From: a virus
Lineage: Duplodnaviria; Heunggongvirae; Uroviricota; Caudoviricetes
Length of the DNA: 50,384 nucleotides
Direction: 5' to 3' (one strand)
Virus record (IMG/VR): IMGVR_UViG_2880412407_000006
Below, in pieces: positions 6,001-9,000 of the stretch; position 1 is the first letter of the stretch; the number at the start of each line of letters is the position of its first letter. The position numbers are program-made.

Positions 6001-9000
6001 CGCCGCCAGCGTTAGCGCCGGATGGCGTGCGGCTGATGCGTGAAACACGATTTCCTTTCATCCACTCTTTTGTAAGCAGACCGCGATCGGTGTAGTCAGC
6101 GCCCAGGTATGCTTCGATAAAAGAGGTCATCAGTCCCAGGTCCGAATTTACGGGGGCGGGGAAAACTTTGTCAGTGTCTCGCACCAGTTTGTACAAATCC
6201 CGAATCTCCAGCGGTTCGAGTTGCACTGCTTTATTTGAGATGGCCAGCGCGGTAACGGCGGGAAGTTTTTCATCCTGTGCGTTATGTAATGCGCGCAGTT
6301 TGTCCAGTGAAACGTGCGTGAGCGGTTTTTCGCTGTTGTGTTGCGCCAGCCAGCGAACAGGCAGAATCTGACCTGAAACCGGAAGAAGCATATTCTCCTC
6401 AATCTTAGCCATGTCTTCGCCGTTGACGTTGGTATTGTCAGTACTGGCTGGTTTGTCCGGAACAGAGGGCGCGATAAGTATCATTGTGATACCATCTTCT
6501 CCGCCTTTTTCGTATCGGTTGCAGAATTCAGTATCAAACACACCTTCCGGTGGAAGGTCATTCACAACGGGTAAATGGACGCGGATGGGTTTTTTAAAAT
6601 CCTCTTCGTCAAATCCGGCATCGTCCATTGCAGCAATGCAGCGTGAAACCGCAACAGAAAGTTTTTTTGCCTCTGTCCAGAAAAAGCCGCCTTTGATGCC
6701 GAGGCGTTTTCTGGTTTTATCATTTTTCGCGTCGCAATACAGAGCGTAATTTTCTTTATCAGTACTCATTGATAAACCTCATAACTATTTTAAGGTTGAG
6801 CGACCACCTGCCATTGCTGGCATAAATTCAGTTTCGAATAGTCAGTTAGTTAAAGTTCGTGTGCCATCTGGTCTTTTTCGGCACAATTTTCACTACAATA
6901 TTTTTTCATTTCCGTCGTTGGGATAACTCCACGCATGAAATGAAGTGGTCTTTTAATACTTTTGCTTTCTTCAATTCCTTTATTGCAAAGGTGATAAGCA
7001 CATTTTATTTTCTTAGTCATCACCATGACTCCGCCTTTACAGGTAAACCATCACGACCGAGGAAGACTTTAATCATGCGGTCAGTAATGCATGTTTTTGT
7101 GGTCAGGTTACGAATATAAAGTTTTCGCTTTTTAATATTGTTTGCCGAGGCAATATATGTCCGGCCTTCATGAAGAACATAATCGCCAGGGGTCACACAC
7201 TGACGTGGTATTTCATCAGTTCCGAAGTGATGAGCAATCATAATTATCTCCATTTTTACAAATGAATTTTGTCGATGCGGTGCCTGGTGCCTCCAGGTGA
7301 CGTTAACCAGTTAACAATTAACGCCGGATATTTCACCCATAACTCTGCTACGAAGGACAATAGCTTTTTAACTGTTCCGCGTGCGCTTAGCCGCATTCAC
7401 CGCATCACAAAATTCACTTTAAAAAGGGCGGACATCAGTCGAACTTCAAGAAAAAACTGATGCCGCCAAGACTACACACAGCAGTGTTGTTATTCACAAC
7501 CGGAGGCGCACTCCCACCATTTAAATTTGACAGACAAGACCGACTCTTTATGGATACCGGAAATGCGCCTTCGTGTTGTGCCCGGTTTTATTTCACCACC
7601 TCCGGGCTTTGGTGGCCTCGGCTATACCCCTACAGCAAGAATATTGAATTAATCCAATAAATGGTTTAGCTGGTATTTTTGGCAAGCCAGCGACGTGCGC
7701 CTGTTTCAGTTTTAAATGTTTTGCTTTTGGTATACGTCATGGCGGTGAACGTTCCATCCTGGTTGGGGAACACGCCACACACTAGGGATTCGTTGTTGCC
7801 GAGGTCGATTTTTTGCATTTTGCGAATCTCACATCTTGTTGCTGCATATAGCGGCTTCTGCCTGCCAGAGATCCCAGTCGTTGCTGCGTAGAGCCTGTAC
7901 AGCTTGGCTGTAAGTGATACCGCAACAATCCATCAAATACTGAACTACTTCGTAATGCACCATTTTATCTCTCCCTTTAACGCCGGGTGGCGGAACTAAA
8001 ACCTACAGCGCCGTGCTGCTTCTGCAATAATATTAGTTATGTTCATATTAATGATCAACACAAATATGCATTTCGTTGATAAAAATGTACTATCCTAATG
8101 AAATTTTTAGTGTTTTTTTGATAAAAAGTAAGGCGGGGGCGGGCGGAGGGGACAAAAAAACCGCCAAAAATGGCGGTTTAGTTACGAGATGGTGGGAGCT
8201 ATTTCTTCATGCGTTTTTGAGCTGCCAGCATATTTTCAAATGCTTCTTTGTAGAGTTCATTCTGACCTTTAAGTCTTTCGATTAGTTTTGCTTTTTCTGA
8301 TTCGGGAAGGATATCAAAAAGATCTAGTAAATCAGCTTGTTGCTTGTTAACCATCCGCCAACCTTCGCCTTCGAAACTTTCGTCATAAGTTCCTGAGGAA
8401 CGGACGTAATTCATCAGATCAGCTAAATCAGGCCTCAACTCTTCAGGCTTAACTCTTAGTAATACAGCGAATTTTAATGCCGCATCAGTATTAAGTGGAG
8501 CCTTTCCGTTGAGATAATGGCTAACCGCAGATTGCGCCTCAAAACCCATTAGCTCGGCAGCAAGCTCCTGAGTCAGTTTGAGCTCTCTTTTTTTTGCATC
8601 CCAGATTGCGCGCAGACGTTGCGTAGCTTCCGGCGATGCGATTTCTTCGCGTTTTCTTCTCATACCACCATCTTATGAATACAGTTCATAATCTCAAACT
8701 GATATAGGTATTGATCATTTAAATTAGTATGGTTAATATTTTTGTGAGCATTACTAAGGTGACCATTATGACATTAGATGAATATTTGAAAAAAAATCGT
8801 GTACGACAGTCTTGTTTGGCCGCGCTGGCTGGTTGTTCGCAATCAATGATTAGCCTCGTTGCTACTGGACGTAGTCAGTTAAGCCCTGAAAAGGTATTGC
8901 GTATCGCAGAGGCTACGAATTTCGAGGTTACACCTCATGAACTCCGGCCTGATATCTACCCTAATCCGACCGATGGTTTACCTGTTGGATGTAAGGCTAA

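Follow-up and report, generated by a model that had tools for sequence, protein, structure and literature searches.

The perfect palindrome TTATGAA-tacag-TTCATAA (TTATGAATACAGTTCATAA) is very probably an operator in the control region between a divergent repressor gene and the ydaS-ydaT operon of a Rac-family prophage, and comparison with related control regions makes it most likely one of three operator sites in a lambda-style prophage switch. More specifically, it is probably the OR3-equivalent operator of a lambda-type immunity switch, in an immunity module that is not the racR/ydaS module of K-12. The initial annotation had the palindrome controlling ydaS-ydaT; it more likely governs synthesis of the repressor, because it overlaps the predicted repressor promoter, and a different dyad, at 8721-8739, covers the -10 of the ydaS-like promoter. 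A name transfer is thereby corrected, as the neighbouring repressor is not RacR: this is a Rac-like prophage with a different, uncharacterised immunity module, to which knowledge of RacR operators does not apply.

Layout of the control region

The window, meaning the whole 50,384-nucleotide stretch of viral DNA that was analysed, contains a single exact copy of the palindrome, at 8673-8691. The initial annotation had the sequence right, and placed it 2 nt too far to the right, at 8675-8693. Its gene layout agrees with that found here, with the palindrome between the divergent repressor gene and ydaS-ydaT, and its interval of 8664-8767 is exactly the spacer from the start codon of the repressor gene (CAT at 8661-8663, minus strand) to the Cro-like ATG at 8768. 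The features of the region are as follows.

8030-8048, unstranded: leftward putative operator (OL-like) ATATTAG-ttatg-TTCATAT, matrix rank 1 in the window
8030-8058, minus strand: predicted leftward promoter (PL-like), from sequence reading; scores 8/12 and was missed by the scanner
8158-8179, minus strand: predicted intrinsic terminator 3' of the repressor gene, dividing it from the leftward operon
8199-8663, minus strand: immunity repressor, 154 aa, from profile, structure and sequence searches
8670-8697, minus strand: predicted repressor promoter (PRM-like), from consensus scan and hexamer conservation
8673-8691, unstranded: the palindrome, a perfect dyad and repressor-promoter-proximal (OR3-like) putative operator, from exact match and comparative data
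8702-8720, unstranded: weak candidate for a further site, ATATAGG-tattg-ATCATTT, covering the PR -35, from a weak dyad signal
8711-8739, plus strand: predicted rightward promoter (PR-like) for the ydaS-like gene and ydaT, from sequence reading and conservation
8721-8739, unstranded: second putative operator (OR1-like) AAATTAG-tatgg-TTAATAT, dyad -76, matrix score 18.3, rank 2 in the window
8768-9043, plus strand: YdaS-family Cro analogue, 91 aa (PF15943, E=2e-10)
9020-9037, unstranded: YdaT box TTGATT-catgaa-AATCAg across the ydaT start codon, from sequence
9027-9449, plus strand: YdaT (CII analogue), 96% identical to K-12 YdaT by sequence comparison

The predicted repressor promoter combines a -35 TTGAGA (8697-8692), a 16-nt spacer and a -10 TAAGAT (8675-8670) that ends 7 nt before the ATG, and all 22 related loci compared below have a TAnnnT hexamer, ending 7-8 nt ahead of the repressor ATG. 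Transcription is predicted to start at ~8663, the A of the ATG, which would give a leaderless mRNA of the kind shown for lambda cI, paaR2 and racR (PMC8630535, PMC9638921). The palindrome, 9 nt from the repressor ATG, covers the promoter's spacer together with the initial 3 nt of this -10. In the other direction, the PR-like promoter pairs a -35 TTGATC (8711-8716) with a -10 TAATAT (8734-8739) over a 17-nt spacer, with a predicted start at ~8746; it scores 8/12, under the scanner threshold, and the right arm of the 8721-8739 site holds its -10. The reverse complement of this hexamer, ATATTA, is invariant in 17/17 loci, and the mapped -10 of K-12 PydaS is likewise TAATAT (PMC9638921). The right-hand end of the palindrome is 20 bp upstream of the PR-like -35, and its midpoint is ~64 bp upstream of where PR transcription is predicted to begin. 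The PL-like promoter repeats the PR hexamers, with a -35 TTGATC (reverse complement of 8053-8058), a 17-nt spacer and a -10 TAATAT (reverse complement of 8030-8035) that the 8030-8048 site overlaps, just as the PL hexamers of CP-933P are identical to those of its PR (PMC8630535). Leftward transcription is predicted to start at ~8023.

Identity of the repressor and its neighbours

Judged by its sequence, the repressor beside the palindrome is not RacR. BLASTP against K-12 RacR returned E=4.5, and the NCBIfam RacR equivalog NF049929 (cut-off 200 bits), which scores K-12 RacR at 244.6 bits, gave no match to the repressor at E<=0.01. A search for the RacR-type motif (T/A)TAGGC-n3-GCCTA(T/A) with 2 mismatches allowed found none in 8664-8767, the sole match in the 50 kb being at 29198. 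In this repressor a lambda cI DNA-binding domain is joined to a DicA/PaaR2 tail: after a basic arm at the N-terminus come a lambda-cI-like HTH domain and, at the C-terminus, a DicA/PaaR2-like helical hairpin. The N-terminal domain matches lambda cI (E=5.5e-9 to 3kz3 and 6e-8 to 1lmb; Foldseek target TM 0.74-0.82), keeping Gln44-Ser45 at the start of the recognition helix as well as the basic arm. The S24 peptidase domain is absent, and the only Pfam matches are to HTH_3 and HTH_31.

The true start of the Cro analogue is the ATG at 8768, with a Shine-Dalgarno AAGG at 8756. The protein is 42% identical over 50 aa to K-12 YdaS and 39% to CP-933P YdaS, and matches the PDB 'Cro' chains 8c7k and 8co2. 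The YdaT box has been defined experimentally as ATGATT-n6-AATCAA in K-12 (PMC11879457) and TTGATT-n6-AATCAA in CP-933P (PMC9986795). DNA homology to K-12 starts only at ~9016-9021, and only ydaT onward matches K-12 Rac.

A repressor gene divergent from ydaS-ydaT in a Rac-type prophage by ttcA is what was found, and a 100%-identical copy of the module lies in the ttcA-adjoining prophage of E. coli 2013C-3264. Of 5426 complete E. coli genomes, 74 carry the immunity module, which also occurs in Salmonella, Hafnia, Enterobacter and others. As the immunity module is different, the prophage should be heteroimmune to K-12 Rac. The literature search returned nothing on this immunity type, nor anything relevant on phage Rac-SA53, in which a member of this repressor family is annotated dicA/dicC.

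Conservation of the putative operators

Taken alone, the palindrome is weak evidence that barely exceeds chance. Perfect inverted repeats with 7-nt arms and 0-8 nt spacers number 70 in the 50 kb, at ~45 distinct places, or ~1 per 1.1 kb, and the chance of one falling within 104 bp is ~6-10%. Its significance instead comes from a dyad centre conserved in 22 loci, from the recurrence of its half-site at two further sites that overlap promoters, and from the pattern of substitutions. An unbiased dyad scan of these 22 related control regions identified only two conserved centres, both with 7-n5-7 geometry, at -28 and -76 from the repressor ATG and 48-49 bp apart. The first is the palindrome's position (8673-8691; spacer 5, z=4.1) and the second is 8721-8739 (z=4.3), both z-scores being inflated by the phylogeny that the 22 loci share; the dyad centre persists in relatives whose repressor is as little as 48% identical. 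When the repressor-proximal site was anchored on the -10-like hexamer, independently of symmetry, A3/T4 was invariant in all four arms across the 17 non-redundant loci used to assess arm invariance, a conservation partly confounded by the -10 hexamers sitting inside arms 1 and 4. Arm 3, within the repressor-promoter spacer, also keeps A3/T4 in 17/17 loci, and the sequences of arms 2 and 4 are correlated within genomes (permutation p=0.0014).

The perfect symmetry itself is a derived trait of the subgroup formed by the window and loci L003 and L004, since the relatives' repressor-proximal site is just 2-6/7 symmetric. Where the palindrome has the left arm TTATGAA, most relatives have an ATATTA-type arm, which accounts for the palindrome's low family-matrix score (14.0, against an expected maximum of 13.3 for 50 kb of shuffled sequence). 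In ETEC4069, a 94%-identical E. coli variant, all three sites are substituted only in spacers or innermost arm positions: in the palindrome only the spacer and the innermost base of the arm have changed, and in 8030-8048 only the spacer has.

Matrices built from the relatives locate the same three sites. With leave-one-out matrices, these rank 1-3 within 3.7 kb, and an OL-type site is found in nearly every relative at +560 to +627; with a matrix from relatives <=83% identical only, their ranks across the entire 50 kb are 1, 2 and 4. The matrix that ranked 8030-8048 first had never included that site, which is a hybrid of both half-site types and the place where the TATGAA half-site recurs. Three such sites within 900 bp arose in 0/2000 local shuffles. 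The degenerate pattern WWATKAR-n5-YTMATWW matches only the three sites, but was derived from them and was discarded as circular. A third, middle operator (8697-8720) was also set aside, as a weak signal only that may stem from the two divergent -35 hexamers: the candidate at 8702-8720 reflects a signal at offset -48 (spacer 10, z=3.3) with low matrix scores. The PL -35 is likewise covered by a similar sequence, at 8049-8067. Among viral contigs, 13 carry the same near-identical region (12 with the full repressor ORF and the truncated L092); this search for further spacer variants yielded no new diversity, its 20 other matches being chance.

It is very improbable, given these data, that the palindrome is a chance AT-rich repeat without function, its conservation reflecting only the -10 hexamer and common descent. 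Such an explanation draws on the frequency of comparable repeats (~1 per 1.1 kb), the closeness of the score of 14.0 to the shuffled-window maximum, and the overlap of arm 4 with a -10; it is opposed by the retention of A3/T4 in arm 3 at 17/17 loci, a dyad centre kept to 48% repressor identity, the recurrence of TATGAA at OL, and substitutions that spare the outer arms. Even less probable is that YdaT, the CII analogue, or a host factor binds the palindrome, or that it acts as an RNA hairpin. The hairpin's predicted energy of -3.6 kcal/mol is unexceptional (z=0.04 versus shuffles), and both predicted transcription starts are downstream of the palindrome. Any likeness to an ARG box or another host-factor site would be limited by the TGAA/TTCA spacing, 5 nt here rather than 6. 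In K-12, YdaT protects some of the DNA between racR and ydaS with no clear motif (PMC11879457), but the YdaT box differs from the palindrome in both sequence and spacing (n6 versus 5 nt), and is present instead at 9020-9037.

A putative lambda-type switch and its alternatives

The favoured reading is an OR3-like operator, at which the 17-bp core TATGAA-n5-TTCATA would be bound by the cI-like repressor, by the YdaS-family Cro analogue or by both, in each case as a dimer. Since the palindrome takes up the spacer of the predicted repressor promoter and three bases at the start of its -10, occupancy of the palindrome would block RNA polymerase and switch off repressor synthesis. The Cro analogue would shut off the repressor in this way once the switch flips, and excess repressor at the same site would produce negative autoregulation. 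Repression of ydaS-ydaT would act mainly via 8721-8739, which contains the rightward -10 and is likely the main site for it, and the third related site, 8030-8048, would control the leftward promoter. In this scheme we infer the promoters, the identity of the binding protein and the order of occupancy. Two positional analogues have been studied experimentally: in K-12 the repressor occupies the ydaS-promoter site before the repressor-proximal one, which fills only as the concentration rises (PMC9638921), and in CP-933P the repressor-promoter site is the first that YdaS fills (PMC8630535).

That the palindrome is instead the repressor's principal operator, keeping the toxic ydaS-ydaT operon silent, is unlikely. 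In favour of this, the palindrome is the most symmetric element of the spacer and shares its operator family with the site over PR, and the repressor's oligomerising tail, common to octameric PaaR2, could bridge sites (PMC8630535). However, at 20 bp upstream of the PR-like -35 it could not occlude PR alone, the PR -10 sits in the separate 8721-8739 site, the repressor is not RacR, and both K-12 RacR and CP-933P PaaR2 repress the ydaS promoter via PR-overlapping sites (PMC9638921, PMC8630535). Somewhat less unlikely, though still doubtful, is that these are composite operators, with constant ATATTA-type arms serving as half-sites for the repressor and variable, fast-evolving arms, here TATGAA, as those of the Cro analogue. 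The palindrome, made of two variable-type arms, could then be a Cro-dedicated site scarcely bound by the repressor; of the same low probability is a re-sorting of arms in the window's subgroup, giving the PR site two 'repressor' arms and the repressor-promoter site two 'Cro' arms.

Several patterns fit such partitioning. The repressor recognition helix is nearly constant (QxxVSH/QYLNG), and the Cro-like helix groups match the arm triplets one-to-one (SQSM/SQSS with GAA, SQVH with TTG, SQGY with TCG, TQGF with TCA and SQAL with GCG). Loci L080 and L082 share a repressor helix and differ in both Cro helix and arms, and loci without a cro-like gene (L006-L010) carry almost only ATATTA-type arms. 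Considering the helix only, the arms track Cro better than the repressor (partial r 0.53 versus 0.39), but considering whole N-terminal domains they track the repressor better (partial r 0.35 versus 0.07), both in a small sample; furthermore, all the cro-less loci come from one lineage, and the groups differ in the N-terminal arm of the repressor too. Were it true, half-site partitioning would sharpen the switch by giving each protein its own preferred operator, rather than relying on the subtle affinity differences that set preference in lambda.

Relationship to known prophage switches

The OR3-like reading can be set against the characterised switches of this type. The PaaR2/YdaS/YdaT module of CP-933P (E. 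coli O157:H7) has the same gene order, with the repressor divergent from ydaS-ydaT across a spacer of ~100 bp, and its IR1 and the paaR2 ATG are 11 nt apart, compared with 9 nt for the palindrome and the repressor ATG. Identity is 39% for the Cro analogue, 29% for YdaT, and 33% over 46 aa for the repressor's C-terminal tail, the only part of the repressor that aligns; the DNA-binding domains have no detectable similarity. The CP-933P operators are four equally spaced 18-bp GTTTAGTAA-type palindromes (PMC8630535), in contrast to the 7-n5-7 geometry here. A comparison by eye with the CP-933P-type spacer, which has CTTTAGTAATCACTAAAC, found no more than two isolated TTAGTA hexamers in the window's spacer. 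Downstream of the repressor there is no paaA2-parE2 toxin-antitoxin pair here, and the terminator at 8158-8179 follows.

K-12 Rac has the same prophage backbone and integration neighbourhood (ttcA, intR, xisR, recET, kilR), a YdaT 96% identical to that here, and the same rightward -10, TAATAT. Its repressor-proximal operator O3, at the leaderless racR promoter (PMC9638921), is the counterpart of the palindrome. Yet the repressors are unrelated in sequence, YdaS is only 42% identical over 50 aa, and the (T/A)TAGGC-n3-GCCTA(T/A) operators of RacR (PMC9638921) are absent here. DicA of Qin is also a short cI-type repressor without a peptidase domain, encoded divergently from a cro-type gene, and homology between it and the repressor here covers the last 50 residues (E=7e-9 to NF007257; 30% identity). 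The N-terminal domains differ, however, and the repressor here scores 35.6 bits, below the DicA family cut-off of 101; no similarity was found between DicC and the Cro analogue, and the Qin operator Oc, TTGTTAGTCATAACTAACAA (PMC3441716), is unlike the palindrome.

The likeness to lambda begins with the protein, the cI N-terminal domain being homologous to that of the repressor, with the Gln-Ser start of the recognition helix and the basic arm in common. At the DNA, the 17-bp core TAT-n11-ATA has the length and outer triplets of the lambda operators (1lmb), although the half-site is TATGAA/TATTAA rather than TATCAC. As in lambda, a family of dyad sites is found at both OR and OL, overlapping the divergent PR/PRM-like and PL-like predicted promoters, with the palindrome in the OR3 position over the predicted PRM and a repressor mRNA predicted to be leaderless. 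Lambda has three OR sites at 23-24 bp, whereas here there are two clear sites 48-49 bp apart; the three-site layout allows pairwise cooperativity and activation of PRM, but no site here occupies the PRM-activating position. The lambda repressor carries an S24 autopeptidase for RecA-mediated induction, in place of which there is a DicA/PaaR2-like tail, and the Cro analogue is a YdaS-family HTH protein, unlike lambda Cro. The operator and promoter assignments are testable, and the module they concern still has a near-identical version of the toxic YdaT under its control. Its switch is an uncharacterised member of a well-known kind, as expected of the lambdoid design, and its repressor shows how the DNA-binding domain of cI has been combined with the tail of DicA and PaaR2.

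The divergent control region and its palindrome

The sequence TTATGAA-tacag-TTCATAA, reported in the initial annotation, occurs exactly once in the window, at 8673-8691 rather than the stated 8675-8693, a difference of 2 nt. The interval given for its surroundings, 8664-8767, lies exactly between the repressor gene and the ATG at 8768.

Features of the control region and its surroundings
8030-8048: OL-like site
8053-8058 and 8030-8035 (reverse complement), minus: predicted leftward promoter, TTGATC-17-TAATAT
8199-8663, minus: repressor, 154-aa HTH gene
8199-8350: LLxLFxxLPExE motif and long helix of the repressor, residues 105-154 (also L122 2547-2954 and L123 1532-1904)
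8664-8767: spacer, 104 bp, between the minus-strand HTH gene and the plus-strand Cro-like gene
8673-8691: palindrome
8697-8670, minus: predicted repressor promoter, sigma-70-like, TTGAGA-16-TAAGAT
8711-8716 and 8734-8739, plus: predicted rightward promoter, TTGATC-17-TAATAT (from sequence reading, -10 invariance and the K-12 parallel)
8721-8739: OR1-like site
8768, plus: ATG, real start of the Cro-like gene, preceded by AAGG at 8756

Perfect inverted repeats with 7-nt arms and spacers of 0-8 nt are common in the window, with 70 across its 50 kb (in ~45 places), and the chance of one falling within the 104-bp spacer is roughly 6-10%. Hence the palindrome taken alone is weak evidence. Its reading as an RNA hairpin was rejected on the folding score (-3.6 kcal/mol, z=0.04), as was its identity as a YdaT box, ATGATT/TTGATT-n6-AATCAA (PMC11879457, PMC9986795), which is a different motif, present instead at 9020-9037.

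Probable operators conserved among related loci

Relatives of the repressor (~153 aa, 48-92% identical) occur in Salmonella, Hafnia, Enterobacter, E. albertii, Pseudescherichia, Citrobacter and Serratia, as well as in phage Rac-SA53, and in nearly all of them the gene faces away from ydaS-like and ydaT genes, with 103-108 bp in between. When 22 control regions were aligned at the repressor ATG, and every offset scored with spacers of 0-11 nt, there were only two conserved dyad centres, each with a 5-nt spacer, starting at -76 (z=4.3) and -28 (z=4.1), these z-scores being inflated by the relatedness of the loci. The former corresponds to 8721-8739 in the window, and the latter to the palindrome. 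Re-anchoring independently of symmetry, on ATATTA (the reverse complement of the rightward -10) for site A and on a TAnnnT hexamer ending 7-8 nt before the ATG for site B, placed the two 48-49 bp apart at all loci. In all four arms of these sites, AT at positions 3-4 is invariant in 17/17 non-redundant loci; arms 1 and 4 overlap -10 hexamers, meaning part of their conservation is that of the promoters, and the invariance includes both arms lying in promoter spacers, outside the hexamers. Arms 2 and 4 also co-vary at their inner positions when compared within genomes (of 3 positions, a mean of 1.94 match vs 1.26; permutation p=0.0014).

Within three sites (8030-8048, 8673-8691 and 8721-8739), the ETEC4069 variant, 94% identical, carries substitutions exclusively in the 5-nt spacer or at the innermost base of an arm, the outer six bases being unchanged in all six arms; two other loci have a like pattern (TTATGAA-ctaca-TTCATAA in L004, TTATGAg-ccaca-TTCATAA in L003). 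The repressor-proximal site of most relatives has an ATATTA-type left arm, and is symmetric at just 2-6 of 7 positions; the perfect symmetry of the palindrome is therefore a derived trait.

A half-site matrix built exclusively from other genomes gave its top three scores in 3.7 kb of the window at 8030-8048, 8721-8739 and 8673-8691. In almost all relatives it also detected [variable arm]-n5-(C/T)TAATAT between +560 and +627 relative to the repressor ATG, a putative OL-type operator that had no part in building the matrix. A stricter matrix, from relatives <=83% identical, places the three sites 1st, 2nd and 4th across the whole 50 kb (scores 18.5, 18.3 and 14.0). Three sites scoring at least 14.0 within 900 bp were found in 0/2000 local shuffles, while the palindrome's own 14.0 is near the shuffled-window maximum (mean 13.3). 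Neither the dyad scan nor the matrix scan found a middle operator of the same type. On this evidence the palindrome is real and very probably works as an operator, one belonging to a lambdoid immunity specificity so far uncharacterised.

Rank 3, with a score of 14.9 that exceeds the palindrome's, goes to ACATTAG-cttga-CTAATTT (16827-16845). This intergenic sequence, next to promoter-like TTGACT hexamers, precedes a small ORF at 16901 and may be either a chance match, given the shuffled mean maximum of 13.3, or a fourth repressor site. Weaker scores adjoin 8030-8048 (8049-8067, 8064-8082), and in several relatives the first OL site is joined by a second strong one 19-47 bp away.

A replaced immunity module and its proteins

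The window is a Rac-family prophage, and its 8150-9500 recurs with 100% identity in E. coli 2013C-3264, within a prophage that adjoins ttcA and carries intR, xisR, recT, recE and kilR; the module is found in 74/5426 complete E. coli genomes and 13 IMG/VR contigs. That prophage (L002) has an 849-bp Rha-family regulatory protein gene between kilR and ydaF (7240-8088) that the otherwise closely related window lacks (6389-7260); the window therefore did not originate in that strain.

The neighbouring repressor had been taken for RacR, an assignment that does not hold: it has no similarity to K-12 RacR (E=4.5), and is unmatched by the NCBIfam RacR equivalog (K-12 RacR, 244.6 bits; cut-off 200). The published RacR operator, (T/A)TAGGC-n3-GCCTA(T/A) (PMC9638921), is absent from the spacer. 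Because the repressor, Cro-like protein and operators diverge from those of K-12, and the DNA match to K-12 Rac begins only at about 9016-9021, the immunity region is a replacement relative to K-12 Rac, and 'racR' serves here as a label of position and does not denote an orthologue. YdaT itself is 96% identical to its K-12 counterpart. The start of homology coincides with the YdaT box TTGATT-catgaa-AATCAg (9020-9037), spanning the ydaT start codon; hence the mosaic junction between foreign immunity module and Rac backbone falls on a regulatory protein-binding site.

Over its first 82 residues the repressor shows homology to the DNA-binding domain of lambda cI (3kz3, E=5.5e-9; 1lmb, E=6e-8), and structures of the N-terminal domain of the lambda repressor, among them the operator complex 1lmb, are the best matches for its AlphaFold model (mean pLDDT 79; target TM 0.74-0.82, 35-42% identity). 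The recognition helix still begins with Gln44-Ser45, the N-terminal arm is basic (MRRKRE), and the protein contains no S24 peptidase domain. Residues 105-154 form a helical hairpin homologous to the C-termini of DicA (NF007257 E=7e-9, under that family's cut-off; 30% identity) and of PaaR2 from a CP-933P-type locus (33% over 46 aa, E=4e-6). All three (DicA being from Qin) share the motif LLxLFxxLPExE together with a long helix, despite their differing DNA-binding domains; this segment appears to be a portable module of short prophage repressors, possibly for oligomerisation.

The Cro analogue, a member of the YdaS family (PF15943), matches the solved 'Cro' chains 8c7k and 8co2; its identity is 39% with CP-933P YdaS and, over 50 residues, only 42% with K-12 YdaS. 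Across related loci the repressor helix is nearly constant and Cro-like helix groups match the variable arm triplets, while loci without the cro-like gene (L006-L010) have almost exclusively ATATTA-type arms, which hints that the operators may be composite, the palindrome then comprising two 'Cro-type' arms. Partial correlations with the arms point opposite ways, whole domains favouring the repressor and helices favouring Cro. Four Pseudescherichia loci (L006, L007, L008 and L010, around 2360-2500) have the repressor and two OR sites without ydaS/ydaT, with replication genes directly downstream of the rightward promoter, nearly all arms of the constant ATATTA type, and perfect palindromes at the PR site.

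Regulatory role and comparison with known switches

The palindrome covers the spacer of the predicted repressor promoter and runs three bases into its -10; hence a bound protein should block repressor transcription. As it lies on this promoter, upstream of the rightward -35, while 8721-8739 holds the rightward -10, the palindrome is most likely the equivalent of OR3. Its proposed control of ydaS-ydaT is unlikely, as the rightward -35 starts 20 bp beyond its end. We infer the binding, promoter positions and order of occupancy at these sites: the Cro analogue or excess repressor would occupy the palindrome, switching off repressor synthesis, and ydaS-ydaT would be silenced mainly at 8721-8739. 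The predicted leftward promoter has the same hexamers as the rightward, with 8030-8048 overlapping in the same register. A G-rich tract, ggcgggggcgggcggagggg (8130-8157), lies just past the repressor gene terminator on the side of the leftward promoter; no part of the OL region varies more between the window and ETEC4069.

The inner 17 bp of the palindrome, TAT-n11-ATA, share their length and outer triplets with lambda operators. In lambda, Gln44 reads operator A2 (1lmb complex), and this core fits a lambda-like domain retaining Gln44, which may by analogy read the same position here. The two-site 7-n5-7 layout (ATATTAG-cttac-CTGATTT and ATATTTG-tgttg-CTAATAA, 47 bp apart) recurs at 1377-1442 of Escherichia phage Lyz12581Vzw (L087), whose full-length Stx-phage cI contains an S24 peptidase domain and shares 53% identity in the HTH, although its cI mRNA is predicted to have a leader and a GGAGG Shine-Dalgarno sequence. 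As the repressor -10 of the window ends 7 nt before the A of the ATG, with an equivalent hexamer in 22/22 loci, its mRNA is predicted to be leaderless, which has been shown for lambda cI, paaR2 and racR (PMC8630535, PMC9638921). In K-12, where the mapped PydaS -10 is TAATAT, the ydaST promoter is protected at the lowest RacR concentrations and the racR-proximal region only at higher ones, with racR autorepression of about 3-fold (PMC9638921). In CP-933P, the repressor promoter is the first to be occupied by YdaS, and repression by PaaR2 is stronger at PR (PMC8630535); IR1 there lies 11 nt from the paaR2 ATG, much as the palindrome lies 9 nt from that of the repressor.
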